Positions 28,152 through 51,439 of a DNA stretch of 51,479 bases are shown in pieces. How positions within the stretch are numbered: position 1 is the first letter of the stretch; each line of letters opens with the position of its first letter. The translations under genes were made by a program, and so were the position numbers. The stretch is taken from NCBI GenBank assembly GCA_018824725.1, contig JAHJGB010000062.1, positions 1-51,479 of the forward strand. The letters run 5' to 3'. This DNA comes from Candidatus Omnitrophota bacterium. Its GTDB lineage: Bacteria > Omnitrophota > Gorgyraeia > Gorgyraeales > Gorgyraeaceae. The notes under the pieces were generated by a model. It saw only the letters and a program-made list of their open reading frames with translations, ran no database searches and was not told the origin of the DNA.

Positions 28152-28158
28152 ATATTTT

Positions 28159-28243: not shown

Positions 28244-28244
28244 T

Positions 28245-36064: not shown

Positions 36065-36094
36065 ATTATACCATTATATATATGGAAAAATCAA
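36065..36094 (-). promoter_or_regulatory. Candidate sigma70-like promoter giving a near-leaderless bamD-like transcript
   Basis: On the minus strand: TTGATT (36094..36089), 18 nt spacer, TATAAT (36070..36065). The ATG at 36054 is only 10 nt past the -10 box. Confidence 0.4.
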
Positions 36095-36108: not shown

Positions 36109-36168
36109 ATGATGGAAGCCCGGGGCGATGGAAGCCCGACTCCCTATGGGAGTCGGGCTTCCATCATA
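36109..36168. repeat. Family A REP-like hairpin with a partial direct duplication of the left arm
   Basis: TGATGGAAGCCC, then GATGGAAGCCCGACTCCC-TAT-GGGAGTCGGGCTTCCATC. Confidence 0.9.
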
Positions 36169-36175: not shown

Positions 36176-37447
36176 TTATAAAGATGGGTTATAATAGCCC
36201 ATCTTGAGGCTGGGGAAAGATTTTTTCAGGGAAGTTATCAATTGCCTGACGCCTACCATTGCAGAAAGCTGGCCAGAGTATTTTATAATCTTGAAATAAT
36301 GAAGCGGGTCAAAGTTCAGGTTGCGCCATTGGATCATGTCTATTTTATAAGTTTCTATAAATTTCTTGAGCGCTGCGAATTCATCCTTGGAATCTGTAAA
36401 TCCAGGCATGGTCAGATAATTAATCGATACAAAGCCTTTTTTCTGCTTGGCTGTTTTTATAGACTTTAAAACATCCTGAAAATTATACCCGGCCGGCTTG
36501 TAATACCTCTCGTAATATTCTTTTCTGACGCTATTCATGCTTACCCTTATGCTATCCAAGCCTGTATCAAACAACCTGGCTAATGCCTCAGGCCTGGAGG
36601 CATTAGTATTCATATTTATAGTTCCCTTATGGGTTTTGGTCCTGATTAACCTTATGGATTCTTCAATTAATTCCGCCTCCAGCAAAGGTTCGCCTTCGCA
36701 GCCCTGGCCAAAACTAAGTAGTAGGCGGTCGCGACCGCCTACTACTGTATTTTTAACATTACAGATATGAAATAAGGCTAGTTCAGCCACTTCTTCAGGA
36801 GAAGGCGTAAATTTTATCCTGGGCTGGGTCTCTAGCGAAATACACCCTGCGCAGTTGGCATTGCAGGAAGGAGATACGGGTAAAGGGCATTCTTCTCTGG
36901 ATAAGAAAAAATTCTGCGCACCGGGACAGCCATGGATCATAGCGCAGTCTTGCAGATGCCTGATAAGCCTGTTGGCAGGGAATAATTTTTTTATTTTTAT
37001 TGCATTTTTTCTGACGGAATCGATATTTATAAATTTCGGGTCATGCCTGGAGGATTTATCAACTCTTATTGCCGTAACATAGATATCGCCTTTATAAAAA
37101 CCAGCTAGAGTATAGCAGTAAAGCGGCAGGGCCTTTCCACCTACGCAGCGGGATTTATCCCACCGCGTAGGTGGAAAATGGTAGGCAGCACTGTAAGTGC
37201 CTGTAAAAGCAGGCGCCACAAACGCAGCAACAGCAAAATAATTTTCCAATGCCTTGAATTTTCCGCCGACCCTGTCATATCCCACAGGCATTCTTCCGGG
37301 CAGCATAAAAAGCCTGCTCGCTTCGGGTATCTTAATGAATTCCCTCTTCCCAGGCCTGAAAAAACAACCTGCCTTCATGCCTGCGGCTTCCAGTTCAGGA
37401 ATGTCAAATATTTTGCCTGATTTATCTGATACGAGTAGGTGAAACAC
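36176..37447 (-). CDS. Radical SAM enzyme of unknown function
   Basis: 423 aa with a GTG start. CNANCAGC (CxxxCxxC) cluster and a downstream GCEGEPLL glycine-rich motif. The ~190-aa N-terminal domain is uncharacterised. Confidence 0.8.
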   Translation of the reverse strand: MFHLLVSDKSGKIFDIPELEAAGMKAGCFFRPGKREFIKIPEASRLFMLPGRMPVGYDRVGGKFKALENYFAVAAFVAPAFTGTYSAAYHFPPTRWDKSRCVGGKALPLYCYTLAGFYKGDIYVTAIRVDKSSRHDPKFINIDSVRKNAIKIKKLFPANRLIRHLQDCAMIHGCPGAQNFFLSREECPLPVSPSCNANCAGCISLETQPRIKFTPSPEEVAELALFHICNVKNTVVGGRDRLLLSFGQGCEGEPLLEAELIEESIRLIRTKTHKGTINMNTNASRPEALARLFDTGLDSIRVSMNSVRKEYYERYYKPAGYNFQDVLKSIKTAKQKKGFVSINYLTMPGFTDSKDEFAALKKFIETYKIDMIQWRNLNFDPLHYFKIIKYSGQLSAMVGVRQLITSLKKSFPSLKMGYYNPSL

Positions 37448-37448
37448 G

Positions 37449-37697
37449 CTATTTCAAGACGAGGTCTTTGCCCAATTCTTTGACTGTATAGGTGCGGGTT
37501 AGCTTGCCTTGTGTATTATATTTATATACCCTGGCTTCGTCCCTGTCAAAAAAATACAAATTAGTGCTATCTCCGGAAAAATAAATGTTTTGCGGTATAT
37601 TTATCTGGCACGCGCCTTTTTTCAATCCTATTGAAAAAATTATCCAGGCACACAGAAATCCTATAAAAAATACAAATACCCTCTTTAGAATAACCAT
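37449..37697 (-). CDS. Small membrane-anchored hypothetical protein
   Basis: 82 aa. One N-terminal TM helix (VFVFFIGFLCAWIIFSIGL). Tightly packed between the LacI gene and the radical SAM gene. Confidence 0.5.
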   Translation of the reverse strand: MVILKRVFVFFIGFLCAWIIFSIGLKKGACQINIPQNIYFSGDSTNLYFFDRDEARVYKYNTQGKLTRTYTVKELGKDLVLK

Positions 37698-37709
37698 ATC
37701 CCTCCTTAT

Positions 37710-38711
37710 TTAAGCCAATGCCTGGCAGGAGCTTCTTTCCACCAACTCTGTTGAGAGCACTATTCTTTTATTAGACCTTATTTTCTTCTGAATGATCTGG
37801 TTAAGCGTCTGCGTAGCAACCAAGGCCATCTTGTGCAAAGGCTGCCTTATGGTCGTAAGAGGTATAGGACTGTAATTCAATGCCAGGGGATTATCGTCAA
37901 AGCCTATGATTGATATATCCCCAGGGACACCGACTCCGTTTTCCAGGCATACCTGTATAGCCCCGACAGCCATTTCATCGCTTGCCGCAAATATTGCTGT
38001 AGGCGGGATCTTCATCCTGATCAGGTCTTTTGTCAAGGTCATAGCAGATTTCCTTCCGAAATCCCCGTATTTTATATAATCTTTTTTCTTGTCGATTTTA
38101 TGCTTTTCCAGCGCTGTCAAATAACCGTTTAACCTGTCTATTGCCACTTGCGTTTTCAGCGCGCCTGTAATAGTGGCGATCCTGGAATGCCCTAATTTTA
38201 CAAGATATTCAACCGCATCCAGGCCTGCGTTAAAATTGTCTATTGATATGCATGATACAGGAAGATCTTTGGTGTCATAGTTCATTATAACGCATGGAAG
38301 CCCTGCCTCTACCACCCCATCAACTTGCTCCTCATTGCCTATAATATCAGAAAATATCACTCCCTGTACGCTGGAGATATTTAAAAATGAGTCTCCATTG
38401 GTTACGTGCAGCAATAAATCCATCTTCATGCGTTCCACCGCAACCCCTACGCCCTGTAATATCTGAAGGGCGTAAAATGAATGGAATATATCTGTGTACC
38501 TGGGAATAACAAGGCCTATTATGTTATTGTTGCGCTTTGAAGCCAGGCGCTGGGCGCTCACATTAGGCCTGAATTTCAATTTCTTGATAGCCAGTTCTAT
38601 CTTATCCCTGTTATATTTTTTTACAGAACTTAATTTATTCACAACTCTTGAAACAGTGGCTATTGAAACGCCGGCCTCCCTAGCCACGTCTTTAATATTT
38701 TTTATGCTCAT
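37710..38711 (-). CDS. LacI-family transcriptional regulator
   Basis: 333 aa. N-terminal HTH IKDVAREAGVSIATVSRVVN and a periplasmic-binding-protein-like core. Its ATG overlaps the secretin stop (ATGA). Confidence 0.9.
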   Translation of the reverse strand: MSIKNIKDVAREAGVSIATVSRVVNKLSSVKKYNRDKIELAIKKLKFRPNVSAQRLASKRNNNIIGLVIPRYTDIFHSFYALQILQGVGVAVERMKMDLLLHVTNGDSFLNISSVQGVIFSDIIGNEEQVDGVVEAGLPCVIMNYDTKDLPVSCISIDNFNAGLDAVEYLVKLGHSRIATITGALKTQVAIDRLNGYLTALEKHKIDKKKDYIKYGDFGRKSAMTLTKDLIRMKIPPTAIFAASDEMAVGAIQVCLENGVGVPGDISIIGFDDNPLALNYSPIPLTTIRQPLHKMALVATQTLNQIIQKKIRSNKRIVLSTELVERSSCQALA

Positions 38712-40225
38712 TTTAATTTCGCTCCTTCCGGGCTTAAAATAGTAGCTGTTACAAATATCAAAAGATTTTTTCTTGTGGTGCTGTCTGAATCTTTTTTAAA
38801 AAGCGCGCCCAATATAGGGATGTCCCCTAAAAACGGCGTCTTTGTCCTGGTACTAGTCTTGGATTCCTTTATGAGCCCTCCCAGGACCACAGTATCCCCG
38901 TTTTGCACAGCTATATTCGTGCTTAGGTTTCTGGTGGTGAATTTCGGGAGCTTTATTTCTCCGCTATATTGAAATGCATCGGCTGTAGCCTCGCTGACCT
39001 CGGGATGAAGCGTCAATGCTATAGTCTCTTTGTCTTTACCTACGCTCGGGGTTACGTGTAATAAAATCCCTATAGGCCTTGTTTCAAAACCCTGGGGCAC
39101 ATTTACGAAACGGGTCTCTTTGATGCCTTTCACTGACGTATCGAGAAAATCCCCGTCTGAGTTCAAATCCTCTTTTACAAGAGTAGGCTCATACCGCGTA
39201 GGATATACAAATTCATCCGCTATCGCTATCGTCGCTGTCTGGTTATTCAATGTGGTTATCTTAGGCGCGGAAAGTGTTTTACTATTTGTCTTTTTATCAA
39301 GGGCATGCAGCACCGCGGAAAACTGTGGTTTTGTCAATATGCCTTGATAAGCAAGATTCAATCCTTCATCAGGCGAACCTGTAAATGTTGAAAATTTTGA
39401 ACCGCTTGATGACCCTATTTGGGTAATCGCGCCGTTCTCGGTCCCGCTGAGTGTTTGTTTAGTTATAGCCCATGGGCTGTCCAGCGACAAGTTCACTCCC
39501 AGCTCGCTCAGATCAGTTACATTCACCTCTACGAACCTCGCTTCCACCAGAACCTGGGTAGCGTCTATATCCAAATTATATAATATATCCTCTATAATTT
39601 TAAGGTTCGAGGGCGTATTAGTAACTATCAAAGCTCCGGTGCGCTCATCCAGGTTGATCTTCGAATCAGAAGGCCACATCACCGCATTTTCAAGCGTATC
39701 TTTTATAGTGGTTATCTTGGATATAGCAGCTCCTCCGCCCTTAGCCCCGCTAGTAGTCCCGCTGAATTCAGTGAACATGGCAAGCCCCTGGTCCAGAAAA
39801 TACATCCTGGTCTCAGACGTTTCATTATCCATGTTATCTATGGTATCCACCCATACGGCATTTTTCTCAATCCTGTATATAAGCCCCTGATTCCTGAAAA
39901 CATATTTCAGAAGGCTCTCCAGAGACATGTCCTTGACCTTTATGGTAACCTTTTTTTCTGAAAGCTTGACTCCGCTGCCCGGGATTATATTAACGTCTGT
40001 GGCCTCTGACAAAAAATCAATGACATAGTCAAGGCCCACGTCCATAAAATCCACTGTTATCGGGGTCTTGAGTTTTTTTCTTATCTCGGGGATCTCTACA
40101 ACCACTGAATTGTTCCCGATAGTATCGTCCCCCTTGACAGACTTCATCTCGTAAGCAAAAGAAACCTCAGGGCTTGAAAATAAAACTATGCATAATAACA
40201 TGCGCATCAAAAAATTCATGGCCAT
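38708..40225 (-). CDS. Secretin (GspD/PilQ family), short paralogue
   Basis: 505 aa. Signal peptide, N0-like domain (ITVDFMDVGLDYVIDFL...) and a C-terminal secretin motif TPFLGDIPILGALFKK. Confidence 0.85.
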   Translation of the reverse strand: MAMNFLMRMLLCIVLFSSPEVSFAYEMKSVKGDDTIGNNSVVVEIPEIRKKLKTPITVDFMDVGLDYVIDFLSEATDVNIIPGSGVKLSEKKVTIKVKDMSLESLLKYVFRNQGLIYRIEKNAVWVDTIDNMDNETSETRMYFLDQGLAMFTEFSGTTSGAKGGGAAISKITTIKDTLENAVMWPSDSKINLDERTGALIVTNTPSNLKIIEDILYNLDIDATQVLVEARFVEVNVTDLSELGVNLSLDSPWAITKQTLSGTENGAITQIGSSSGSKFSTFTGSPDEGLNLAYQGILTKPQFSAVLHALDKKTNSKTLSAPKITTLNNQTATIAIADEFVYPTRYEPTLVKEDLNSDGDFLDTSVKGIKETRFVNVPQGFETRPIGILLHVTPSVGKDKETIALTLHPEVSEATADAFQYSGEIKLPKFTTRNLSTNIAVQNGDTVVLGGLIKESKTSTRTKTPFLGDIPILGALFKKDSDSTTRKNLLIFVTATILSPEGAKLK

Positions 40226-40226
40226 T

Positions 40227-42728
40227 TTATTGTTTTAAAGATTCTTCTTCTAAACCTTCAGCGCTTGCTACCTTATTCTCTTCTTTGCCCATGATACTGG
40301 CTGTAACGAATATTAAAAGATTCCTTCTCTCTTTGAAATCAGTATTCTTTCTGAACAGCCCGCCTATAAAAGGTATATTGCCCAGCACCGGCACTTTTGT
40401 CTTCACGTTTGTATTCGTCTCTTTTATAAGCCCACCCAATACTATTGTTTCCCCGTCTTTAACCATCACGCTGGTGCTGAGGTTTCTGGTGGTAAAATTA
40501 GGAATGCTGACGTTTCCTGAATATGTGAAAGACCCCGCATCTTCGCTGACTTCGGGAGTTAACGCAAGCGTGATGCTCTTTTTATCCACCCCTACGCTCG
40601 GCTTGACATGTAAAAGTATGCCTATGTTTCTGGTCACAAAATCCTGGGGCACATTTATCCACTCTGTTTCTCCTGCGTCATCAAAATCCCCGTCTCCGTT
40701 TATGTCATACTGCACAAGGCTTGCTTCATATCTGGTAGGATAAATATATTCCTCCACGACTTCTATGGTGGCTGTCTGGTTATTAAGAGTGGTTATCCTG
40801 GGAGCGGATAACGTCTTCACATTCTGTTTTTCCTGAAGCGCGTGCATGGCTGCCTGAAACTGCGGATTGCTCAAGATACCCTGATAAGTAAGATTAAACC
40901 CTTCGTCCGAGCGGTTGAAATTAGAAAAATCCACCCCGCTGTCCTGGCTGACTCCGTACACATTGTTGCCAGATCTGTTTTTGTCCATAGCCCACATGCC
41001 GTTCAGTTTCCACTCCACTCCAAAGTCATCCAGATCGCTTACCTTGACTTCCAAAAATCTCGCCTCAATCAAAACCTGCATAGGAGTTATATCAAGGTTA
41101 TATAAAAGATTCTCTATGGTTTCCAGATTTGAGGGCGTGTTGCTTATAATAAGCGCGCCGGTGCGCTCATCCAGAGTCAATTTTGAATCCTTGGGCCATT
41201 CAACCGCATTCTCAAGGATATTTTTTACTGTCTTTACTTCTGAGGCAGAGGTAGCTACAGTGCCGGAGGACTTATCTTCGCCTGATGACGAAGCCTGGGT
41301 TGCAAACTCCGCGAACCTTCCTATGCCCTGGCTTAAAAAATATACCCTTGTATCTATTTTTTCATTAGATATCTCGTCCTTTGTAGCCACCCATACAGCG
41401 TCTTCTTCTATCCTGTAAACCAAGTCCTGGGATTTTAATATATACCTCAGCGCCTCTTCGAGAGGCATATCTTTTATCCTTATGCTTACCTTTTTTTCAG
41501 CCATATCTATCTCTGTAGAAGGAACCATGTTTACGCCTGTGGTGTCTGCTAGAAAACCCAGGACATAATCCAAACCAACGTCTTTAAAATCAACGCTTAT
41601 GGGTATCTTGAGACGCTTTCTTATTTCAGGTACCCTCACTATAGGGGTTATCTTTTTTTCATTTTCAAGCTTGGCTGTTTTTTCTTCAGGCAATATATGT
41701 TTTTTTGCCACATCCAGCATCATCTTTTCTTCAGTAAGCTCCCTGGCTTTTTTCAAAGCAGCCTCTTCCACTTTCAGTTTCTGCATGTCTATATAATGCT
41801 GTATATCCTTGAATTTTTCATTTTCCGGAAATTCCTGCATAGCTTTATCCACCAGGACCTCTGCCTCTTCAAATCTTTTTTCCCTGATATTGCCTATTAT
41901 ACTGTCCATCAAACCTGCCAGCTTGGCAACTCTGTCTCTGGCTTCTTTGACTTTTAACCTCTGTTCAAACATCATTCTGAGCGCCTCTTTCTGTTTTTCT
42001 TTTCTGGCCAGCTCCACTCTATTGAGCTCGGCATCTCTTTCCATTTCCAGCTTGGCGCGCCGTGCCTCTTCCATTTTCACAAGAAGTATCTTTTCTTCTG
42101 TTTTTTTCATTTGTTCCTGCATATCGCGGATATAAGAATCCGCCTGGCCTGCCAGAGAACTGATAGAATCCATCTCCTTTACCTTTTTAAACCCCACTAT
42201 GCTTGAAGGATAATCTTTGGACCTATAATATGCCAAGGCGCTGTCAAATACAGCCTTTATATTCCGCTCTTTTTCGTACAATTCTTTTTTCTTTGAATCC
42301 AGCGCTAACTTTTTCTTTTGCTGCTCTTCCTGGATAATCTTTTCGCTTTCTTTCCTGGCCAGCGCCTCTGCCTCGCCCACCACGTCCTTTTTCATCCTTT
42401 CCCATTTTTTCTCTTCCATGATCATGAGTTCTGCCATGCGGGTTTTGGATTTTTCAATGTATATCTCAGCAAAAGGCGTAAAATACGATTGATTGTCGGC
42501 CTTTTCTACTTCAATCAATTTTTCAAATATTATAACAGCTTCTTTGTATTTACCTGACTCGAACAGGGACATGGCTTCTTCAAAATATTTCCTAAGGTTG
42601 ACCTTTAACGCGACAACAGTCCTTGCGGAATAATTCACTGACGCAAACACCCCGGAAGGCAGGTACTCCAGCATCATAAATGCCGCCATTATTAATGATA
42701 TATAATACAATCCTTTATTTCTTCTCAT
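40227..42728 (-). CDS. Secretin (GspD/PilQ family) with a ~380-aa N-terminal TPR/coiled-coil extension
   Basis: 833 aa. The C-terminal ~450 aa is paralogous to the 505-aa secretin (ISVDFKDVGLDYVLGFL...; VPVLGNIPFIGGLFRK). The N-terminal region is E/K-rich helical. Confidence 0.85.
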   Translation of the reverse strand: MRRNKGLYYISLIMAAFMMLEYLPSGVFASVNYSARTVVALKVNLRKYFEEAMSLFESGKYKEAVIIFEKLIEVEKADNQSYFTPFAEIYIEKSKTRMAELMIMEEKKWERMKKDVVGEAEALARKESEKIIQEEQQKKKLALDSKKKELYEKERNIKAVFDSALAYYRSKDYPSSIVGFKKVKEMDSISSLAGQADSYIRDMQEQMKKTEEKILLVKMEEARRAKLEMERDAELNRVELARKEKQKEALRMMFEQRLKVKEARDRVAKLAGLMDSIIGNIREKRFEEAEVLVDKAMQEFPENEKFKDIQHYIDMQKLKVEEAALKKARELTEEKMMLDVAKKHILPEEKTAKLENEKKITPIVRVPEIRKRLKIPISVDFKDVGLDYVLGFLADTTGVNMVPSTEIDMAEKKVSIRIKDMPLEEALRYILKSQDLVYRIEEDAVWVATKDEISNEKIDTRVYFLSQGIGRFAEFATQASSSGEDKSSGTVATSASEVKTVKNILENAVEWPKDSKLTLDERTGALIISNTPSNLETIENLLYNLDITPMQVLIEARFLEVKVSDLDDFGVEWKLNGMWAMDKNRSGNNVYGVSQDSGVDFSNFNRSDEGFNLTYQGILSNPQFQAAMHALQEKQNVKTLSAPRITTLNNQTATIEVVEEYIYPTRYEASLVQYDINGDGDFDDAGETEWINVPQDFVTRNIGILLHVKPSVGVDKKSITLALTPEVSEDAGSFTYSGNVSIPNFTTRNLSTSVMVKDGETIVLGGLIKETNTNVKTKVPVLGNIPFIGGLFRKNTDFKERRNLLIFVTASIMGKEENKVASAEGLEEESLKQ

Positions 42729-43293
42729 TTAAGCCCTTTGTATCCTCTGCGGTTTTCTCTTTTTCTTCTTTCTTCTCTTCCTTTGCAGTGGAAATAACAA
42801 TTTCTTCTCCACTATTTTTCCTAAGAAGCACTTCTTTGTCGCCTATGCTGACAACAATAAATTCTCCCGCAGAGTCCCCTTCTTTAACAGAAAAACTTTT
42901 TCCTGTGTTCTGATCTTCTATAATAACTATAACCCTGGCTCCCAGCGTCATCCTGCCTTTGTAAACAAATAAAGGTTTCTTCGGTTCTTCTCTTAAAGGT
43001 ATAATATCTCCTTTGGTTTCCTCTTTTACTTCAGAAACAGGCCTGGAAAAAATATCCCTTTCCGCCAGGGCAAGGTAATCATCCATTGTTTCCTGTTTCT
43101 TCAGCCCATCAATATCCCAGCTATCCTTGGCCGCCTTTTTTTTGGCCTTTGCCTTTTCAGTTACGGACTCTATATCCTTTAAAAATTCGCCTGTTGATTT
43201 CTTTTTAGTCTCCTGCGTCTTCATGCCTATTACCAAGGTGCCTATCAATACGGGCAAAAGGGCCAGAAATATAATCTTTTCCTTTATAATCAT
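42715..43293 (-). CDS. PilP-like periplasmic protein
   Basis: 192 aa. N-terminal TM helix, charged linker, C-terminal small beta-domain (YKGRMTLGARVIVIIED...GDSAGEFIVVSIGDKEVLL). Position matches PilP. Confidence 0.5.
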   Translation of the reverse strand: MIIKEKIIFLALLPVLIGTLVIGMKTQETKKKSTGEFLKDIESVTEKAKAKKKAAKDSWDIDGLKKQETMDDYLALAERDIFSRPVSEVKEETKGDIIPLREEPKKPLFVYKGRMTLGARVIVIIEDQNTGKSFSVKEGDSAGEFIVVSIGDKEVLLRKNSGEEIVISTAKEEKKEEKEKTAEDTKGLNEKK

Positions 43294-44051
43294 TTTTCTT
43301 CCCTCGCAACCATAAAACTGCTCAATACCAGGCTTATCTCTGCGTCTCCTGAACCGGGCTCGATGCTCTTAACGTGTAATTCTTTTACGCTGATCACAGG
43401 GCTGGCATTTTTAAGCTCCAGCAAAAGATTCATAAAAGCGGTTGTTGTTGTTTTTATAGAAATCTGCACAGGCAGTTCAGTATAAAAGAGCTTCTTTGAA
43501 ACAGGTTCTATGTATTCAATAGGCCTGAGCGGTTTCAGGGTATAAATATCCGAGCCATTGCTTTTTAAAAGCGCGCCTACGGCAAACTCTATTGTCTCAA
43601 GCTGCCTCAAAAGCACAGGCACCATGTTATCCTTGGGAAGCCCGTCCCCGAAACCGAGGTTCTCCGGAAGCCTTACGTCTTTTGTCCCTGCCTCTATTTC
43701 AAATTTCTTCATCGTAGAATGAAGTTTTTCTATAAAATAAAGGCCCGCCTCTGAGTTCTTTTCAGAAAGCCTCGCCTTGTTCGGATCTGTAAAATCCGCC
43801 AGGCTGGAAAATTTATCTTCCAGTAAATCCCTATCTTTCTCCATCTTTGCAAAACTTTCCTTTGAAGGCACTGTGCCTGTAAGCGTGATAAATCTTTTCA
43901 TTTCGCTTATCTTGCGCTCCAATTCTTCGTCCATGATTGAGCGGCCTTCTTTCAAAAAAGGACTGAGGAAAAATATATAAATGCCTGCCAAAACAGCAAG
44001 TACTATAAGCCCCTGTTTTAAAGTAGTTTTTTCTCTTACAGTTTTTAACAT
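43290..44051 (-). CDS. PilO-like bitopic membrane protein
   Basis: Start taken at MLKTVREK (ATG 44051, SD GGGAG 5 nt upstream). TM helix, coiled coil, ferredoxin-like C-terminal domain. Position matches PilO. Confidence 0.5.
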   Translation of the reverse strand: MLKTVREKTTLKQGLIVLAVLAGIYIFFLSPFLKEGRSIMDEELERKISEMKRFITLTGTVPSKESFAKMEKDRDLLEDKFSSLADFTDPNKARLSEKNSEAGLYFIEKLHSTMKKFEIEAGTKDVRLPENLGFGDGLPKDNMVPVLLRQLETIEFAVGALLKSNGSDIYTLKPLRPIEYIEPVSKKLFYTELPVQISIKTTTTAFMNLLLELKNASPVISVKELHVKSIEPGSGDAEISLVLSSFMVAREEK

Positions 44052-44052
44052 A

Positions 44053-45576
44053 TTAACTCCCACTAAGAACAACATCCATGGTAATGCTGAATTTAACTAT
44101 CTCTTCCCCCGTATCCGTGTCGTTTTCCACGGAAGACGACACGGGCCGCACATCGCTGAAACTCGGCAATGCCTTAAGGCTAGACACAAAATTATTAACC
44201 GACTGATAGGACAAGGCCTTTCCGTTCATGTCCATTCTCCCAAGGCTGCTCTTTTCGATCGATATTACCCCCGACAAATCCGTAATCCAGACATCCTTGG
44301 GAAGCATCTCTGAAACAGCTTTGAATATCCCGAGCCACACAGCCCTGGAAGAGACTGTCTGGTACATGGTATCTATTTCCCCTCTTAAAATATTTTCCTC
44401 TTCCTGTATCTTCTTTATCTTGGGCTCATAAGTCCTGTATGTCTCCATCATCTCTTCCACCTTATCAAGCTTGATCTTTTTTATATAGTAGTCCTGGCGC
44501 ATAAAAACGGAAAAGCTTATAAGCACCAGAGCGCCAGTGGCCATTGAAAGGCCGGCATAAATACGTTTTTGCATAGAGGATTTCTTTTCCGAAAGAGCTT
44601 CTTTAAGAAAATTCACTTCTATTTTTAGATCAGCTATCCCCCTCAGCGCAGCACCCACAACCGTAGAAAACTGATTCTTAGGCCCGCACGCCTGAAGTTT
44701 CTGGAACACATCTTTAGATACCCTTAATTTTCTAAAAGGGTCCATGATATTAGGCTTTATGTTAAATTTGGAAATAAGCGAAGCTTCTATATTTTCCATA
44801 ACGCTTCCGCCGCCTGTCAGAAAAAGCTGGGTTAACTTTTTTTCCTGCGGGGCATCTTCTGCTGCCTGCATAAAATAATACTCCAGGGACCTTTCTACCT
44901 CTGTCAGAAGCTCCTCTGCGCCCTGCTCTTTTGCCTCTTCAATCCTCTCCCCGGCTATAGGAAAACTTCTTATCCATATGTTACCTTTATTAAATATAAT
45001 GAAATTGGTGGATTTCGCTCCTATGTCAAGTATGGCCCCGAGGTCCTGGCTGTTAAAGTCCTCGTTGAATGCCATACAGTTATATACGCTTATGGGCGCG
45101 ACATCTATCAACTCTGTGGACAATTTAACGGAATTCAGCCTGGAAACTATTTCTTCCACCAGGTTTTTCTTTATCGCGACTATGACGGCCCTCCTGGATG
45201 AATCTTTATCGCTATCCAGAAGAGACCAGTCCCACATGACCTCGTTCATGCTGAAAGGTATCTGGTTCTGCGCTTCGAATTTCATAGTCTGTTTCAATTT
45301 ATCCTCTTTCACCTGAAGGAGCTTTACGAATCTTACAAAAACAGACTGCCCGCTTATCGTTATATTCACGGTATTCGGCTTTATATTATTCTCTAATAAT
45401 AATTCGGAGACGAGCTGGCCGGTGATTTTATCCCTGTCAAGTTTCGAGTCTTTGGGGATTTCTTTTATGCCGATCCTGGTCAGGACAATGCTACCCTTTT
45501 CTTTTTTAAGCTCAACTAGCTTTATAAAATGCGTACCTATATCCAAGGCTATCGAACTTGCCTTTAACTTGGCCAT
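44053..45576 (-). CDS. pilM: PilM-PilN fusion (actin-like ATPase, TM helix, PilN-like domain)
   Basis: 507 aa. IALDIGTHFIKLVEL and LDIGAKSTNFIIF actin-fold phosphate loops. TM helix YAGLSMATGALVLISFSVF. C-terminal periplasmic domain. Confidence 0.75.
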   Translation of the reverse strand: MAKLKASSIALDIGTHFIKLVELKKEKGSIVLTRIGIKEIPKDSKLDRDKITGQLVSELLLENNIKPNTVNITISGQSVFVRFVKLLQVKEDKLKQTMKFEAQNQIPFSMNEVMWDWSLLDSDKDSSRRAVIVAIKKNLVEEIVSRLNSVKLSTELIDVAPISVYNCMAFNEDFNSQDLGAILDIGAKSTNFIIFNKGNIWIRSFPIAGERIEEAKEQGAEELLTEVERSLEYYFMQAAEDAPQEKKLTQLFLTGGGSVMENIEASLISKFNIKPNIMDPFRKLRVSKDVFQKLQACGPKNQFSTVVGAALRGIADLKIEVNFLKEALSEKKSSMQKRIYAGLSMATGALVLISFSVFMRQDYYIKKIKLDKVEEMMETYRTYEPKIKKIQEEENILRGEIDTMYQTVSSRAVWLGIFKAVSEMLPKDVWITDLSGVISIEKSSLGRMDMNGKALSYQSVNNFVSSLKALPSFSDVRPVSSSVENDTDTGEEIVKFSITMDVVLSGS

Positions 45577-45762
45577 TTACCTGGTCCTTCCCATTAGCGC
45601 CCTGAGTTTTTTAATATCGTCTTCTGTGTATTCCCGCCAGCCATTAAGGGCATTTCTTCTGGCAGCCGGGAACAGCCTCTTGTTTTCATATCTTATCAGC
45701 GTCTGCTTGGATATACCAAGAAGCTGCGCCGCAGTTTCTGCGGAATAATATCTTTCTTTCAT
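45577..45762 (-). CDS. Small MerR-type helix-turn-helix protein (DNA-binding domain only)
   Basis: 61 aa from ATG 45762 (SD GAGGTG 6 nt upstream). YSAETAAQLLGISKQTLIRYENKRL is a MerR/excisionase-type HTH. Its stop abuts the pilM ATG. Confidence 0.7.
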   Translation of the reverse strand: MKERYYSAETAAQLLGISKQTLIRYENKRLFPAARRNALNGWREYTEDDIKKLRALMGRTR

Positions 45763-45844
45763 ATATGCCACCTCGCTATTTAATAACATGTTTAGCCTCT
45801 TAGACGATTCAGGCCGAACTTTTTTTAATTCGGCCTTAATAGAT

Positions 45845-45946
45845 ATCCTTCAGGCACTCCTAATTTGTCGTGCCTTCAGGATTAATTCGCACTTATCAAT
45901 TACGGATTTTTCCGAAATCCGTAATTGATGTGCTCATTAAAAACCC
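45845..45946 (-). promoter_or_regulatory. Family G conserved leader element (two hairpins), copy 1
   Basis: About 100 nt, shared with 51314..51416. Has a 15-bp-stem hairpin (ATCAATTACGGATTT / AAATCCGTAATTGAT) and a second hairpin with a covarying stem and a conserved loop (GACAAATTAGGAG on the minus strand). Confidence 0.7.
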
Positions 45947-45984
45947 TACCGCAAAAATCATATAGCTTGATAGGGAGTGGTATA

Positions 45985-46013
45985 ACTATATACTATCTGA
46001 TAGTATTTGTCAA
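45985..46013 (-). promoter_or_regulatory. Near-consensus sigma70 promoter with a perfect 15-bp dyad as its spacer
   Basis: On the minus strand: TTGACA-AA-TACTATCAGATAGTA-TATAGT. The spacer is 17 nt and contains the 7-1-7 palindrome TACTATC A GATAGTA. Confidence 0.7.
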
Positions 46014-46086: not shown

Positions 46087-46202
46087 AAATAATAAAGGCA
46101 GACTAAAGTCTGCCCTACAATTTTGTCGCAAAGACCTTCCATAAATACCTTCTGTAGGGCAGGTTTAAACCTGCCCTACAGAAGGTATTCTCGGCCTTTG
46201 CC
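46087..46202 (-). repeat. Family E cassette (variant copy)
   Basis: GGCAGAC-TAAA-GTCTGCC (compensatory changes relative to GGCACAC/GTGTGCC) ... 17-bp-stem hairpin ACCTTCTGTAGGGCAGG/CCTGCCCTACAGAAGGT ... GGCCTTTGCC. Abuts the TAG stop of the 46204 gene. Confidence 0.85.
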
Positions 46203-46203: not shown

Positions 46204-48009
46204 CTATTCTTCTTTCCAGAACTTAAACGGCTTCTTTTTCTCAGGTTCCGGCTTTATAACCCCTGTTTCGCTTACAGTCCAGGTCCTTTCCGCAGGAACA
46301 GGGTCTATTTCATCTATATCTACTTTGGAATTCTTATTTACATCTTTCGCAGCCTGGACCTTAAAATAATGATTCCCGTCTTTCAGGTCTTTTTTGGACA
46401 CCGAGGTATCCCTGGACCAGACAGACCATTCCTCATCATCAAATTTCCATCTGAACACGCAATCATCTACGGTGCCTTTAAAGGTAAAAAGCGCTTCTTT
46501 TGACTTTGTCAATAAACTCGGCCCGCTTGTGATTATGGTGTCAGGCGCTATTATTATAAGTTCTATGGTATCGCTGATAACCTCTGATTCGTTTCCTGCT
46601 GTATCCTTAAACTTTACATAAACCTTGCGCGTGCCGCTTATAGGAGTCAGCATCCAGTTTTCCTTCTTGGTCTTAAACTGTACCCATTGTTCATTGTCAA
46701 AAACCCCATCGTTTGAAACCACCATACCGCTAACCTCTGTAGTGGAATCGCTGGCTCCAAACACAAGATTGACATAAACAGAATTGGTAACAGCATCCTG
46801 ATTATTTATTATTATATAACCTGTCGGGCCTTTTGTATCAACAGTAAAGCTCCAGACAACCTGAGAGGTTTTATTGCCTACCAGATCAGCCACTTCAATG
46901 GATACCACATTGCTGCCTTCGCTGAGAGGCGTAGACGGGATATATACTATGCTCTGGCTGTTCTCATCATATGCCGCGTCCACCACGGATTTGTTTATCT
47001 TCATGCTTATAGCGTTTGGATCCACGCCGCTCTTGTCGTCACTGGCTGCTATGGTAATCGTAGGCCTGTCAGACGCCAGCGTTGAGCCTTTTTCCGGAGA
47101 ATAATTCCCTATAACAGGGCTTCCTCTGTCTATCCATAATTCATAAGAAGCCATCTCTCCCCAATTGCCGGCTGAATTCTCAGCCTTAAGATTAAACACC
47201 CTGACGCCGTCCCCTAGCAGATCATCTGGAGTTTGATAAAAAGCGCCTGATGTGTCAGCCTTGTCATCAGGTATATATCCCCAGGCATAACTATACCCTA
47301 TGGGTTCCACTCCAGTCACAGGATATTCCCATGACATATAAGGATCTCCGCATCCCTGCCATAATTTTGAAGGGATATCTTTTCCGCCTGGCGCAGTCTT
47401 TGCCCATATTACAGGCATATCTACCTTGCCTGTTGTAAGCTTAAACCCGTTAGCAGCTGTTTCCCATCCTGAGTAATCGTATCCGTCGCATACTCTTACC
47501 CGCCATTTATAATCTATATAACCTTCGGTGGTAGGGAGTATAGGCGTGGTGTACTGCTGGGAATTGGTTTTAATAATACCGGAATCAACGTCTAATGTTT
47601 TAAAGTTATCCTTGGATAACTGAACCTGATAATAACGCTGAGGATCCTGATCCTTGTCTGTAACTACCCATTTCAATGTAAGAGGATTGTCAAGCGTAGC
47701 CTGGCCGTCGTTATATGCTAATATACTTATATCAGGGATAGCGTTTTTGGTGGGAAGCCACCCGCCGTATATTTTATAACTGGCGCCTGTAGCAACATTG
47801 GTGCCTAATGGGTAGCCCACGCTGTTCTCTGAGTTATAGCTCTTTGAAAACCCGCTCGAGCCTCCTCCGTCTGCCACCGCTGTATGCAGCTTATAATTTT
47901 TACTGCTGGATATGCTGGCGCTTGCAATGCCTGTAAAAACAAAAAAGGCCGCTATAAAAAATAAAGCGGTCTTTGAAATAAAATATCTTCTGAATTTAAT
48001 CCAATACAT
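46204..48009 (-). CDS. Secreted Ig-like/beta-sandwich multidomain protein
   Basis: Start taken at MYWIKFRRYF (ATG 48009), with signal peptide ...FVFTGIASA. Repeated Ig-like modules (e.g. SPEKGSTLASDRPTITIAASDDKSGVDPNAI...). Confidence 0.65.
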   Translation of the reverse strand: MYWIKFRRYFISKTALFFIAAFFVFTGIASASISSSKNYKLHTAVADGGGSSGFSKSYNSENSVGYPLGTNVATGASYKIYGGWLPTKNAIPDISILAYNDGQATLDNPLTLKWVVTDKDQDPQRYYQVQLSKDNFKTLDVDSGIIKTNSQQYTTPILPTTEGYIDYKWRVRVCDGYDYSGWETAANGFKLTTGKVDMPVIWAKTAPGGKDIPSKLWQGCGDPYMSWEYPVTGVEPIGYSYAWGYIPDDKADTSGAFYQTPDDLLGDGVRVFNLKAENSAGNWGEMASYELWIDRGSPVIGNYSPEKGSTLASDRPTITIAASDDKSGVDPNAISMKINKSVVDAAYDENSQSIVYIPSTPLSEGSNVVSIEVADLVGNKTSQVVWSFTVDTKGPTGYIIINNQDAVTNSVYVNLVFGASDSTTEVSGMVVSNDGVFDNEQWVQFKTKKENWMLTPISGTRKVYVKFKDTAGNESEVISDTIELIIIAPDTIITSGPSLLTKSKEALFTFKGTVDDCVFRWKFDDEEWSVWSRDTSVSKKDLKDGNHYFKVQAAKDVNKNSKVDIDEIDPVPAERTWTVSETGVIKPEPEKKKPFKFWKEE

Positions 48010-48082
48010 ATTTAAATCAATTGTACTGCAAAAAAATAAAAAATCAAGAATAATTTTTGGGATTAACTGCCCTAGCAATCAC

Positions 48083-48132
48083 TGATGGAAGTCCGACTCC
48101 CATCAGGATTGATGGGAGTCGGACTTCCATCA
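48083..48132. repeat. Family A REP-like hairpin (23-bp stem)
   Basis: TGATGGAAGTCCGACTCCCATCA-GGAT-TGATGGGAGTCGGACTTCCATCA, perfect. Confidence 0.9.
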
Positions 48133-48153
48133 TGCTTAGGCCCCCCTATAAAT

Positions 48154-51100
48154 TTATCGCTCGAAGACTACCCAGATCTTCTTTTCAGCCAGGACATTGC
48201 CTTTTTCCAGAGTCTGGCCTGTGACAATAATCCTGTAGCAATCAGAATGAACCGTGATAAGATTAGAAATCTGCCTGAACCTGTCTTTCTTATCCGTATC
48301 GACAGATCCCAGCGAATTGGTATCGATAAGGTCGCCTATGCCCATATTAAGGCCATTCTTGTTACCAAAAACCCTGTTATTTATAATGTTATCCGCTACG
48401 GCATCATCTATGCCCGGCAGAGCAGTTAAAACTCTTTTAGAAGCTGTATTTATATTTATCCTGCCGTATAAATTATTTACAGGATCCAGTCTTATAAAAT
48501 CAAAATGAGCAGCGCCTGTATCCGAACTGTTCTTTATTTTTATTTCCAGGATCCCGCCAGGCGTAGACATAGAACTGCCGGTGCCTATTTCTATATTACC
48601 AAAATTAATTCCCCCATCAGGCCCAGGCGTGAGAGCAGGCGTAAAACTCGTCCATGTATTATCCGCCAGATGTACTGATATTGCCATTGCCTCCTCTTCT
48701 TCGCCGAATATCTTTAATTTATAATAGCCATTTTTCAGGCCGTCCGCTGCCTCCCACTTCCATGTCCCTATTGAATCAGGCGTTCCGTTTTCGCACCAGT
48801 CTGTAAAAGGCGCTGCCCTCTGCACGACTTTCCAATTCCCTTCGGAACCTTTTACAATTTTATTTTCCGCTTCCAGCCTTATGCCGTATATGGTAAGCCT
48901 GTCTGCAATCTTCGTAACAGTCTCTATGGGAATAGTCTTCCAATCGTCTACGCTGATAGAAACGGAAGAAATCTCTCCAACTGAAGAAAAATTTTTATTC
49001 TTTACTTTAACCTCGGTATCATAATGCTCTATTATTTCCTCTCCTATCTTTTCCCTCATCCCGTCATTATCATTAGGCAGGCCTGGAGTACCTCCTTTTT
49101 TTGCAGTAGAAACATACCATCTGTTACTGCTTGAACTAGGGTCTGATTTTTCCAATGCCTTATAATCAGTTACATTGCCGCTAGAATACTCCTCCTTATC
49201 CACAATATGGCCCATGGGATCTTTAAGCGTTATGATATTCCCTCCCATAAAAGCAGTATCGCTTAAAAGATCAGAGTTAGGACTGATCGATCTTAAAAAA
49301 TGCAGGGTTGCGGATTTTTCCTTTCCCCATATTGATATAAATGAAATCCCGTTACTATTTATCCCTGCCTGGCTATCGTCTTTGTCAATAGCTAATACAA
49401 GGTGCTCATGCGGACCTATTACAGTTCCAAGCGGTATAGTAGCCGGCCACCCTTCTTTGCTCGGCCCGTCTACAGTCCAGCCGCTAAGATTCACTTCCCT
49501 AGGAGTAAGATTTATAAGTTCTATATATTCTCCGTCAGGCGCCTGGCTCAGCTCTATTGATTTAAAATACGTAGACCCGGTTTCCCGATTGTTCTCTATC
49601 CTGACAGTAAGCTTTCCGCTTGAAACATTAACGACTTTCCCTCCGCCAAACAAATCTCCGTCTTTGATGCTTTCAGAATGAGTTCCGCTTATCTCCACAT
49701 CTCCTATTTCCTGATCAGCTATGCCACTAAACAACCTGACATAATATTTCCCGTCCGGTATATCTTTCCATGTCCATTCGCCTTCTCCGGATTTACCTCC
49801 TTTTGGCTCATTATTCTGATAATATGAATTCTGCCATGTCCAGTCTCCGCCCGGCTCCTGGCCGCTGAAAGTGCTTCTGGAAATAACAGGCCTTACCATT
49901 ATCTCATTTATCCTGATGCCCTCTACACCCCTTATCTCGCTTGAACTGAAATTCTGCTGCCCCAGCCTAGGATACAATTCAAGATAGGAAAAATAACAAA
50001 CCGACCCTGTGCTGTTCTTAATAGAAAGATTTAAGATTTTATTATCAAACGAAACCGCCCCTATCCTCAATAGCTCCCCATGCTTGACATAATTCTGCGT
50101 CATGCCGTTTACAGTGACATCTCCCACCGGTTCATCTTTTGTTCCAAACACGCCTATGTAATATTCGCCTTCCGGCAGATTTATCCAGGTAATTGTAAAC
50201 GGCTCCCCGTTTTCCACATCGCTCCGGTAACAGCCCCCCCTCCATATCCAGTCTCCTATATCGCCTCTATTGATTGCAGCGAGCCTGGTGTATAACTTTG
50301 GTATAACGCTCTGGCTGAAATCATCATCGCACGCGTCTATTATATTGGCTGCTTTCTGGAACGGATCGGTCACGCCCGCGTCTTCAAGCAATACACTAAG
50401 AGTCTGGGCGTCCATGGTATTGATATTATCCTTAAATCTATCCTGGACATCTGTATTCCTATCAACCGAATAAGTGGTTATATAAGGATATAATTTATAA
50501 AGTTCCTGCTTAGAGACCGACTTGATTTTGCTTATCTCAAAAGGCGTTTCAAACGCCCTGTCATCCCCATGAAGATTAAACGGATCGTATTCCATGGGCT
50601 CGTCTATACCTTCGCTCGCTTCATCTATGATACCATTTGAATTATTGTCTATGCCGTCAGAATCCAGTATCCTCTGATTATAGTTATCATCTACGCCCAT
50701 CTCGCCCGGCTGACCATCAGACCCGTATCTGAAACTAAGTATATCTTCATAAACTTTATCCGGATCTTTCAAGCCGCAAGAATTTATAAATTTTTGCAGG
50801 TCCAGTTCATACGGCGTCCATCCTTCTGTAACCTTTAAAGGCGAAAGATTATGTTTATAAGCCACATTTATATCCATAAAACTCGTTTCATCCCTGACCA
50901 GGACAGCATACCTTCCTATTGTCTCGTCCTGGTCATTGTAAATATCCATCCATTTTGAATCAGGCTGGCCGTCACCGTCATTATCGACATCGCTGCCTGT
51001 AAAAACAGTGTGCCATTTATCTTCAAAGCTGTCTATATTTCTTGGGTCTTCTTTTAAAATCTGCTGCGCGTATGTGATTCCTGCCTGCGCAAGGTAGGAT

Positions 51101-51258
51101 GCCCTGGTGGCTTCCAGATAATTAGCTGCGGCTCTTAATTCCAGCCTCATGGTGAATGCAAAAGATATTGCCATTATGCCAGCAACAGCCAGAACGCTTA
51201 CCACAAGTATCAGCGCAATGCCTTTTTCCTGCCTCATTTTATTCATATTGTATTTCAT
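48154..51258 (-). CDS. Giant GspK-like minor pseudopilin with an ~900-aa insert (Ca-binding-like motifs, lamin-tail-like domain, three beta-sandwich repeats)
   Basis: N-terminus MRQEKGIALILVVSVLAVAGIMAISFAF...RAAANY. C-terminus NINTASKRVLTALPGIDDAVADNIINNR (GspK HhH). Internal INEIMVRP...EYIELINLTPREVNLSGWTV. The start is ambiguous (ATGs at 51258, 51246, 51237). Confidence 0.7.
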   Translation of the reverse strand: MKYNMNKMRQEKGIALILVVSVLAVAGIMAISFAFTMRLELRAAANYLEATRASYLAQAGITYAQQILKEDPRNIDSFEDKWHTVFTGSDVDNDGDGQPDSKWMDIYNDQDETIGRYAVLVRDETSFMDINVAYKHNLSPLKVTEGWTPYELDLQKFINSCGLKDPDKVYEDILSFRYGSDGQPGEMGVDDNYNQRILDSDGIDNNSNGIIDEASEGIDEPMEYDPFNLHGDDRAFETPFEISKIKSVSKQELYKLYPYITTYSVDRNTDVQDRFKDNINTMDAQTLSVLLEDAGVTDPFQKAANIIDACDDDFSQSVIPKLYTRLAAINRGDIGDWIWRGGCYRSDVENGEPFTITWINLPEGEYYIGVFGTKDEPVGDVTVNGMTQNYVKHGELLRIGAVSFDNKILNLSIKNSTGSVCYFSYLELYPRLGQQNFSSSEIRGVEGIRINEIMVRPVISRSTFSGQEPGGDWTWQNSYYQNNEPKGGKSGEGEWTWKDIPDGKYYVRLFSGIADQEIGDVEISGTHSESIKDGDLFGGGKVVNVSSGKLTVRIENNRETGSTYFKSIELSQAPDGEYIELINLTPREVNLSGWTVDGPSKEGWPATIPLGTVIGPHEHLVLAIDKDDSQAGINSNGISFISIWGKEKSATLHFLRSISPNSDLLSDTAFMGGNIITLKDPMGHIVDKEEYSSGNVTDYKALEKSDPSSSSNRWYVSTAKKGGTPGLPNDNDGMREKIGEEIIEHYDTEVKVKNKNFSSVGEISSVSISVDDWKTIPIETVTKIADRLTIYGIRLEAENKIVKGSEGNWKVVQRAAPFTDWCENGTPDSIGTWKWEAADGLKNGYYKLKIFGEEEEAMAISVHLADNTWTSFTPALTPGPDGGINFGNIEIGTGSSMSTPGGILEIKIKNSSDTGAAHFDFIRLDPVNNLYGRININTASKRVLTALPGIDDAVADNIINNRVFGNKNGLNMGIGDLIDTNSLGSVDTDKKDRFRQISNLITVHSDCYRIIVTGQTLEKGNVLAEKKIWVVFER

Positions 51259-51313
51259 TATACAAAGCAACCTTCAGATTTGCAAATCAATTTCTCCGGG
51301 TTAATATCTATAG

Positions 51314-51416
51314 ATCCTTCGGATACTCCTATTTGTCGTATCCTCAGGATTAATTCGCACTTATCAATTACGAATTTTTTCAAAATTCGTAATTGATGTG
51401 CTCATTAAAAAACCCC
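51314..51416 (-). promoter_or_regulatory. Family G conserved leader element, copy 2
   Basis: ATCCTTCGGATACTCCTATTTGTCGTATCCTCAGGATTAATTCGCACTTATCAATTACGAATTTT..AAAATTCGTAATTGATGTGCTCATTAAAAA. Lies about 45-160 nt upstream of the GspK-like start. Confidence 0.7.
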
Positions 51417-51439
51417 GCATCCTTTTAATGAGTACTATG

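Follow-up and report, generated by a model that had tools for sequence, protein, structure and literature searches.

The window analysed here is a stretch of 51,479 nucleotides, contig JAHJGB010000062.1 of assembly GCA_018824725.1, which sequence comparison places in a metagenome-assembled genome of Candidatus Omnitrophota. Nine consecutive open reading frames (ORFs) occupy positions 36176-45789 of its minus strand and resemble a pilus-type operon built around a pair of secretins. In the order of transcription they encode a MerR-type winged helix-turn-helix (HTH) protein, a fusion of PilM and PilN, a PilO-like protein, a PilP-like protein, a long secretin, a short secretin, a LacI-family regulator, a single-pass membrane peptide and a radical S-adenosylmethionine (SAM) enzyme. 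An earlier note, made from the nucleotide sequence alone, had described these nine genes with their overlaps and gaps, and the ORF listing returns the same coordinates and junctions. Because each of the nine has conserved orthologues in other Omnitrophota genomes, they are real genes and not chance ORFs. Searches of every protein with hidden Markov models from Pfam and NCBIfam upheld the identities given in the note, with weak matches for the PilO-like and PilP-like proteins, and the domains support its reading of a secretin/pilus-type operon.

A conserved module and its inner-membrane proteins

The locus was compared with more than 20 related loci, and 16 loci besides the window cover the module. 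Seven species-level relatives form a close set with 82-89% identity, and L014 ('Ca. Gorgyraea atricola'), L015, L016, L034, L035 and L036 form a distant set at about 60-76%. The seven close relatives keep the full gene order, but they keep the order BamD-LptE-HolA-MurJ equally, and therefore synteny among them is uninformative on function. In the distant loci an intact block runs from two genes that adjoin the operon on its 5' side, for a GspK-like and an Ig-like protein, through MerR, PilMN, PilO, PilP and the long and short secretins to LacI. The genes found 3' of LacI in those loci are bioB, an ELFV-like gene, a bioF-like gene, bioD, a homologue of the 82-aa peptide, a gene for a 344-aa protein, and hypF with further hyp genes; in L015 a 343-aa protein and hypF follow LacI directly. 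Seven more distant loci lack the radical SAM gene, and in them the peptide is either missing or lies about 4 kb downstream, behind bioB-bioD. Since neither gene is kept 3' of LacI at this distance, the conserved system consists of the seven genes from MerR through LacI and the upstream pair. Tight packing and close-relative synteny had suggested a system of nine genes, and seven survive at greater distance. The comparison of gene neighbourhoods that the note proposed thus confirms MerR through LacI as co-conserved and refutes its nine-gene system for the peptide and the radical SAM enzyme, which biotin (bioB-bioD) or hydrogenase-maturation (hyp) genes replace in lineages at about 66-76% identity.

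The 82-aa peptide (37449..37697, minus strand, from the ORF listing) has one N-terminal hydrophobic segment and is separated by 12 nt from LacI and by 1 nt from the radical SAM gene. No terminator was found in either gap, and in the window and its close relatives the peptide and the enzyme are probably co-transcribed with the module. The radical SAM enzyme (423 aa; 36176..37447, minus strand) is identified by Pfam (PF04055, 66.6 bits, E 4e-18) and by a CX3CX2C motif, CNANCAGC, at residues 195-202. It is indeed the last gene, and its N-terminal domain of about 190 aa is uncharacterised, as the note had said. NCBIfam assigns it to no subfamily (the best match, MoaA, scores 39 bits against a cutoff of 284), and the PDB holds no informative relative. 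The family is very large and well conserved, with about 8000 scored matches and 55% identity still at rank 120. Three homologues with 55-58% identity (L011-L013) have no pilus, secretin or LacI neighbours; two of them (L012, L013) are followed by genes for a 203-aa protein and a thymidylate-synthase-like protein, and the third lies 3' of a YgiQ-like radical SAM gene. The enzyme adjoins the module only in the close relatives of the window. The peptide and the enzyme are probably neighbours of the module in this genus through recent rearrangement, and not functional parts of the system.

The PilM-PilN protein (507 aa; 44053..45576, minus strand) matches PF11104 PilM_2 with an E value of 1.8e-31 and PF05137 PilN with an E value of 1e-9 (38.7 bits, cutoff 22.8), and scores 115 bits with TIGR01175, below the cutoff of 133. 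A single transmembrane (TM) helix at residues 339-359 separates the two domains, such that the topology is that of GspL: a cytoplasmic actin-like domain, one TM helix and a periplasmic PilN domain. The best matches in the PDB are PilM from Myxococcus, Thermus and Pseudomonas (E 1e-26), and the protein reaches 242 bits with Amuc_1101_fam, for which the cutoff is 650. Both PilM and PilN of the type IVa pilus (T4aP) PilMNOPQ set are therefore present, with PilN fused to PilM instead of forming a separate protein.

The next two proteins are more difficult to place. The PilO/GspM/Amuc_1100-like bitopic protein (253 aa; 43290..44051, minus strand; 261 aa from an alternative start at 44075) has weak profile matches to T2SSM_b (21.4 bits, cutoff 21.7), GspM_XpsM (E 5e-6) and Amuc_1100_fam (E 3.5e-5, 23 bits against 180). 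Its orthologues give weak matches to PF28028 Amuc_1100, and one orthologue alone has a faint match to Pfam PilO; the only PDB matches are to PilO, at a non-significant E value of 0.3. The 192-aa protein (42715..43293, minus strand) has an N-terminal TM anchor, a charged linker and a conserved beta-rich C-terminal domain. Its sole profile match is to GspC_delta of NCBIfam (E 1.2e-5, 25 bits, cutoff 150). Nothing else was matched in Pfam, the PDB or profile searches, and a single-sequence AlphaFold2 model has a predicted local distance difference test score (pLDDT) of 45. Its position, its topology and that one weak match suggest that it may be PilP/GspC-like. The 4-nt overlap between the PilO-like and PilP-like genes is almost invariant across loci.

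Two secretins in tandem

The long secretin (833 aa; 40227..42728, minus strand) and the short secretin (505 aa; 38708..40225, minus strand) match the Secretin family of Pfam with 142 and 144 bits, respectively (E 1e-41 and 5e-42). The STN (N0) and Secretin_N domains score above cutoff in the long secretin and just under cutoff in the short one. Both proteins carry a signal peptide followed by N0 (STN), N1 and secretin domains, the N0/N1 arrangement of a PilQ secretin. No match to the AMIN domain, which marks the N-terminus of T4aP PilQ, was found in either protein with Pfam. Among solved structures, the secretin core is closest to PilQ from Neisseria, Vibrio and Pseudomonas (E 1e-33), and then to GspD. 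Against NCBIfam, the two secretins score 207-213 bits with type_II_gspD (cutoff 351), 191-196 bits with PilQ (TIGR02515, below cutoff) and 204-219 bits with Amuc_1098 (cutoff 750).

Residues 363-820 of the long secretin align colinearly with residues 42-504 of the short one at 55% identity, and the short secretin gene begins 1 nt past the stop codon of the long one. Both forms are present in every locus that covers the region, with a gap between their genes of -4 to +43 nt. Orthologues are 66-89% identical for the short form and 60-87% for the long form, and paralogues are 52-58% identical in any pairing. Since identity between orthologues exceeds that between paralogues, the duplication predates all sampled lineages. 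Sequence comparison thus shows an ancient secretin duplication of which both copies were retained with complete N0-N1-secretin cores. The tandem paralogous secretins reported in the note are borne out by their domains, by their identity and by this conservation.

The long secretin differs from the short one by an N-terminal arm of about 330 aa. Glu and Lys make up 31% of residues 31-362, compared with 15% of the core. The arm is modelled as entirely helical, with TPR-like hairpins that alternate with helices of about 85 and about 60 residues, at a pLDDT of 70-85 that applies to the arm only; the core of the long secretin is modelled at a pLDDT below 50. Composition and model agree with the Glu/Lys-rich TPR/coiled-coil extension that the note had recognised in one secretin. 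An exhaustive search of 1.84 billion representative proteins found only 26 relatives of the arm. In the top relative, a protein of 848 aa, the arm is N-terminal as in the long secretins, and the other strong matches are short ORFs, perhaps fragments. By this search the helical arm is specific to the lineage. In view of this outcome, the idea of the arm as a fused pilotin or a widespread scaffold was rejected.

The start of the 833-aa form (42728) yields a signal peptide that is conserved among orthologues, as the start chosen in the note would have it. Public gene calls begin the long secretin 17 codons later, giving a protein of 816 aa without a signal peptide.

Regulators, promoters and flanking elements

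The LacI-family regulator (333 aa; 37710..38711, minus strand) has both the HTH and the effector domain of LacI/GalR proteins, matching PF00356 with 60 bits and PF13377 Peripla_BP_3 with 122 bits (E 4e-35). In NCBIfam it scores highest with RbsR (189 bits, cutoff 382), CytR is second (178, cutoff 436) and CcpA follows (176, cutoff 442), such that no equivalog cutoff is reached. The LacI start codon overlaps the stop codon of the short secretin (ATGA, 4 nt) in 15 of 16 loci, the exception being L036 with a gap of 67 nt; the overlap from which the note had drawn translational coupling is therefore real and conserved. LacI also ranks first in conservation within the module: its identity is 72-77%, against about 62% for PilMN in the same loci. 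We take its HTH (VSIATVSRVVN, with the hinge AQRLASK) to resemble that of CcpA-type proteins. A cre/CcpA-like operator was considered and rejected, with no CG-centred match within the cluster.

One further locus, L033 (GCA_043814965.1, JBDRJN010000029.1), has a LacI orthologue without nearby pilus genes. A homologue of the pilus-operon promoter lies directly upstream of that LacI gene at 5456-5520, with CTTGAAAAACCTATTTTAATAGTATATAGTTGTATCA in place of CTTGACAAATACTATCAGATAGTATATAGTTATACCA, which suggests that a deletion or rearrangement took out MerR through the short secretin or that the pilus genes relocated. In lineages where bioB lies 3' of LacI, a GTTAACC-N14-GGTTGAC dyad, which starts inside the 3' end of lacI, overlaps the TTGACA promoter of bioB (L014 12490-12640, L016 12490-12565, L033 6505-6645, L034 10985-11125). 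This dyad resembles the consensus of the BirA operator. With a separate promoter and a BirA-like dyad, the bio genes are not obvious LacI targets, and LacI as the regulator of the adjacent bio genes was rejected.

The MerR-type protein (61 aa; 45577..45762, minus strand) is a winged HTH, matching PF13411 with 32.3 bits (cutoff 21.6) and PF00376 with 29.1 bits (cutoff 28.2), and NCBIfam agrees. It ends right after the wing, with a match that covers model positions 1-48 of 69, and neither a dimerisation coiled-coil helix nor an effector region was found in it. Its start at 45762, the second ATG of the ORF, is preceded by a conserved GAGGTG Shine-Dalgarno sequence. The small DNA-binding domain that the note had placed first in the operon, and the start assigned to it, are thus supported; the protein is also conserved in related loci.

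Upstream of MerR lies a sigma-70-type promoter, TTGACA-17 nt-TATAGT (45985..46013, minus strand), with 11 of 12 consensus matches. It is found once per locus and is near-invariant in 21 loci. An alignment of 17 leaders contains about 50 nt that are near-invariant, though the proteins are 60-75% identical. The promoter spacer holds a perfect 17-nt palindrome, ATACTATC-A-GATAGTAT (45990..46006), a candidate operator. The palindrome is unique in the window, where a search that allowed up to one mismatch returned only the two strand-readings of the same site. Its right half and the -10 box are invariant across loci, and its left half is degenerate in L033 and L034. MerR-type proteins classically bind dyads inside the spacer between the -35 and -10 boxes, and the dyad suits such a protein; autoregulation by LacI would fit the promoter that LacI keeps in L033.

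The transcript would begin with a leader hairpin, with CCCTATC as its left arm and GGTAGGG or GATAGGG as its right arm, followed by a U-run (45939..45975, minus strand, about +4 to +35). The stem has seven pairs, one of them compensatory. Across loci the loop varies in length, some compensatory changes are seen, and the U-run follows the hairpin in most cases. In five lineages, folding to minimum free energy gives this topology, with a dG of -9.6 to -27 kcal/mol. On these modest grounds the hairpin could be an attenuator or a 5' stabiliser. Rfam returned nothing at gathering thresholds in the window, and the leader gave chance hairpin matches only. A perfect 15-bp inverted repeat in the leader (about 45900-45935) was considered as an operator or riboswitch and rejected as a dispersed element resembling repetitive extragenic palindromic (REP) sequences or miniature inverted-repeat transposable elements, because it is part of repeat D11, a repeat also found upstream of the GspK-like gene, and is missing from most orthologous leaders. 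D11 is a two-hairpin repeat of about 84-100 nt whose two copies (45863-45946 and 51331-51414) are 90% identical, with compensatory changes in both stems; each transcription unit of the pilus cluster has one of them in its leader. D11-type hairpins (TTACG-N15-CGTAA) also stand at unrelated intergenic sites in L014 (20061, 21471) and L025 (17985).

The two upstream genes, which the note had missed, are as conserved as the operon that they adjoin. The first gene of the cluster (48154..51258, minus strand; start at 51258, 51252 or 51243) encodes a giant GspK-like protein of about 1030 aa, a candidate minor pseudopilin. It has a prepilin-like N-terminus (..EKG/IALILVV.., cleavage after G) without Glu5, an LTD domain (E 4e-10) and a C-terminal T2SSK/HhH region, with T2SSK just under the Pfam cutoff (E 7.7e-5). 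NCBIfam matches it to T2SS_GspK (E 6e-18, 65 bits against 130) and its N-terminus to Verru_Chthon cassette protein A. The giant protein is likely to be a filament-tip protein. Always paired with it is a secreted Ig-like protein of about 600 aa (46204..48078, minus strand) with a signal peptide and Big_13 and Ig_Rha78A_N domains, which may be a pilus-associated surface protein. A weak NCBIfam match of its residues 37-112 is to 'CPR-type pilus protein PamT' (E 3e-4, 20 bits against 240).

In related genomes the genes 5' of the GspK-like gene encode GpmA, an MscS-like protein, ribonucleotide reductase and other unrelated proteins; the cluster therefore starts at the GspK-like gene. Its unit has an extended -10 promoter, TTTGCAAAT-N14-TTTGTATAAT (window 51263-51295), that is conserved in L018-L031 and lies only about 5-25 nt from the start codon, so that the mRNA should be leaderless or have a very short leader. 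An operator shared by both cluster promoters was sought and not found, the GspK-like unit having a different conserved promoter. Terminator-like and REP-like hairpins 3' of the Ig-like gene (46095..46187, minus strand; repeat family D6), with the terminator-like site at 46116..46095, separate the upstream unit from the MerR-LacI operon. At the other end, a perfect REP-like hairpin directly 3' of the radical SAM stop codon (36127..36164; repeat family D5, five copies in the window) is likely to be the 3' end of the transcription unit. A promoter-like site for BamD, TTGATT-18-TATAAT, lies beyond it at 36094..36065.

The remaining genes of the window are housekeeping genes, including those for BamD, LptE, HolA, MurJ, UvrC, PrfB, SecA, Lnt, LysS and LolCD, and further ones for ClpC, Mla, IspDF, CysS, MetG and others. 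REP-like intergenic palindromes such as GATGGAAGCCCGACTCCCTATGGGAGTCGGGCTTCCAT are abundant (8-45, 6412-6449, 9843-9896, 36127-36164, 48080-48133, 51439-51476 and other sites). Repeat families D1-D10 typically lie between convergent or tandem genes, at the positions expected of terminators. The 94-nt repeat D3 occurs as two copies with 96% identity (28154-28247 and 29351-29444) at the 5' ends of the SecA and PrfB genes, with a weaker third copy at 20008-20101; it contains the hairpin GGCACACTAAAGTGTGCC, also found 3' of the Ig-like gene (46097-46139). A structured intergenic repeat of about 250 nt has copies that are about 90% identical 3' of Lnt (about 22900-23300) and 3' of HolA (about 32590-32840), and no tRNA and no credible Rfam match was found in it.

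Interpretation and comparison with known systems

Comparison of sequences establishes the identities of the genes, with weak assignments for PilO and PilP, as well as the limits of the conserved module, the conservation of the promoter and the conserved coupling of secretin and LacI genes. The region probably encodes the envelope-spanning scaffold and the outer-membrane part of a T4aP-like machine, a member of the superfamily of type IV pili (T4P) and type II secretion systems (T2SS), in a version typical of the Planctomycetes-Verrucomicrobia-Chlamydiae (PVC) group and related to Akkermansia Amuc_1098-1101; the probability of this reading is put at about 0.7. One conserved sigma-70 promoter would give a polycistronic mRNA for the seven genes from MerR through LacI. 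Their products would include a PilO-like partner, a PilP-like adaptor for the secretin, a long secretin with a periplasmic arm and a short secretin without one, and the two secretins would be made together and work at the same machine. The separate upstream unit, with its own promoter, would supply the GspK-like minor pseudopilin and the secreted Ig-like protein, and the ATPase or ATPases, the platform protein, the major pilin and the prepilin peptidase would have to be encoded elsewhere in the genome. The spacer palindrome may be the site at which the LacI protein, the MerR-like protein or both exert feedback on the conserved promoter, and LacI would bring in a small-molecule signal, as CytR does for pilMNOPQ in Vibrio cholerae.

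Several observations weigh against this reading. No gene for a pilin, a prepilin peptidase, PilB/GspE or PilC/GspF was found in the nine-gene stretch, as the note had reported, or in the rest of the 51-kb window, such that a complete machine is not demonstrated. The assignments of PilO and PilP are weak, and the NCBIfam equivalog matches (Amuc_1098/1100/1101, GspD, PilQ and GspK) all fall under their curated cutoffs. The secretin, PilMN, GspM-like, GspC-like and GspK-like matches are about equally compatible with a T2SS and with a T4P. With respect to regulation, the cluster has no CG-centred, cre-like operator for LacI, the LacI HTH is unchanged in L033 and L034 although the palindrome there has a degenerate left half, and in L033 LacI exists without adjacent pilus genes.

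The same genes could be read as the scaffold of a T2SS and not of a pilus. GspL would then be PilMN, GspM the 253-aa protein, GspC the 192-aa protein, GspD the two secretins and GspK the 1030-aa protein, and the system would export exoproteins in, for example, a predatory or epibiotic lifestyle. The GspL topology of the fusion, the T2SSM_b/GspM_XpsM and GspC_delta matches, the type_II_gspD scores that equal or exceed those of PilQ, GspK as the best family for the giant upstream protein, and the lack of the AMIN domains that typify T4aP PilQ are all consistent with export. This is nonetheless quite unlikely, given that T4aP PilQ and PilM are the solved proteins most similar to the secretin core and to PilM, that PilM_2 and PilN are the sole strong inner-membrane matches, that the closest named families are the pilus-type Amuc families of Akkermansia, and that the GspD, GspK, GspM and GspC matches are all under cutoff. 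In addition, a TXSScan-based survey reports T4aP gene sets in most Omnitrophota, across their classes, and calls T4aP, not T2SS, in them (PMC10066038). A single dedicated system of nine genes, with the radical SAM enzyme and the peptide providing, for example, a modified peptide or cofactor at the channel and with hetero-oligomeric or stacked secretins, is highly improbable. The short gaps without a terminator after LacI, the order kept in seven close relatives and the tight coupling of the secretin genes, which fits co-assembly, would agree with such a system; against the enzyme and the peptide as parts of it stand the equal synteny of BamD, LptE, HolA and MurJ in the same relatives, the seven more distant loci without the radical SAM gene and with the peptide displaced or missing, and the occurrence of the very large radical SAM family in unrelated contexts.

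Within the preferred reading, a pilus-type scaffold with two secretins and built-in regulators, two parts are open to other accounts. LacI could be a passenger that regulates unrelated, perhaps metabolic, genes and borrows a strong pilus promoter, the palindrome then being a site for the MerR-like protein or a mere feature of the promoter. The lack of a CG-centred LacI/CcpA-type operator despite the HTH that we take to be CcpA-like, the position of LacI at the border of the pilus and bio/hyp blocks, its stay on the bio side in L033 and the classic use of spacer dyads by MerR-type proteins lend this account some appeal. It is somewhat doubtful in view of the 4-nt overlap that 15 of 16 loci keep between the LacI and short secretin genes, the pilus-type promoter that LacI kept in L033, the separate promoter and BirA-like operator of the adjacent bio genes, and the rank of LacI as the most conserved protein of the module. 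The two secretins could likewise serve two machines, such as a pilus and a secretion or DNA-uptake apparatus, or two types of pilus, that share PilMN, PilO and PilP without co-assembly of the secretins. Both paralogues keep the N0-N1-secretin core and evolve at comparable rates and so look functional, only one has a long periplasmic arm, which suggests a different geometry or different partners, and Thermus is reported to assemble two distinct pili with one machinery (PMC13039148). We consider two machines unlikely, since invariant adjacency with near-zero spacing across the sampled lineages is more typical of subunits in a fixed ratio, and genes for a second machine are not seen in the window.

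The boldest form of the preferred reading is that the two co-translated secretins, one of them armed, co-assemble into a heteromeric or two-tier conduit, as the note had suggested they might, and that LacI as a ligand sensor and the minimal MerR-type protein act together on the promoter palindrome. This is improbable as a whole. If true, it would be the first natural hetero-secretin channel, and these ultra-small and possibly host-dependent bacteria would have a self-contained pilus module gated by a small molecule. Secretins are described as homo-oligomers of one gene product (for example in PMC5742652), and a secretin pair that is adjacent in every sampled lineage raises the question of hetero-oligomeric or dual channels. 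The Omnitrophota are described as uncultured and mostly ultra-small, with pili thought to attach to hosts or prey (PMC10066038).

Compared with the pilMNOPQ operons of T4aP in Pseudomonas aeruginosa, Myxococcus xanthus, Neisseria and Vibrio cholerae, the operon has the same M-N-O-P-Q order, with matching PilM, PilN and secretin domains and with bitopic proteins that are weakly assigned as PilO-like and PilP-like. It differs in that PilM and PilN are fused, that two tandem secretins take the place of one, and that the AMIN domain is lacking from both, its place in the long copy being taken by the lineage-specific helical TPR/coiled-coil arm. In addition, a MerR-type gene stands at the front, LacI stands at the end and a giant GspK-like gene lies next door. 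The pili-like cluster Amuc_1098-Amuc_1102 of Akkermansia muciniphila, also a PVC organism, contains the closest named families to the PilM-like, PilO-position and secretin proteins, but the scores lie far below the equivalog cutoffs, and the proteins are related to these families without being members. That cluster is described with one secretin and with neither a MerR nor a LacI gene (PMC5332112). With the GspC-GspL-GspM-GspD and GspK set of T2SS, the operon and its neighbour share the GspL topology of the PilMN fusion and GspM-, GspC-, GspD- and GspK-like matches. In contrast to that set, no GspE, GspF or GspG-J is present in the window, none of these matches reaches its cutoff, and the GspK-like protein is about three times the normal length, with an LTD insert.

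The regulators also have partial counterparts. As in promoters controlled by MerR-family regulators, a MerR-type HTH protein is found here together with a perfect palindrome in the promoter spacer. MerR-activated promoters have a spacer of 19-20 nt, whereas here the spacer is the optimal 17 nt and the protein of 61 aa is without a coiled-coil dimerisation or effector domain. In Vibrio cholerae, CytR, a member of the LacI family, controls competence-pilus genes including pilMNOPQ (PMC4581735). CytR is encoded elsewhere and acts in trans with TfoX, whereas the LacI gene here is coupled to a secretin gene inside the operon. Descriptions of tandem or hetero-oligomeric secretins or of an embedded LacI were not found in the retrieved passages on pili and secretion from an incomplete body of Omnitrophota and secretin literature, which included PMC10066038 and a complete-genome preprint of 2026. 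The note had held that the combination is unlike any described system. This stands for the secretin pair and the operon-embedded LacI, which are apparently undescribed, and does not stand for the first five genes, which follow the layout of PilM, PilN, PilO, PilP and PilQ in T4aP and match the PVC-type Amuc families. In short, a conserved module, its promoter and its embedded regulators are now defined for a pilus-like machine of the Omnitrophota, and three of its conserved features apparently set it apart from described systems: a secretin pair of which one member has a helical arm, a MerR-type mini-regulator at the front of the operon and a coupled LacI at its end.

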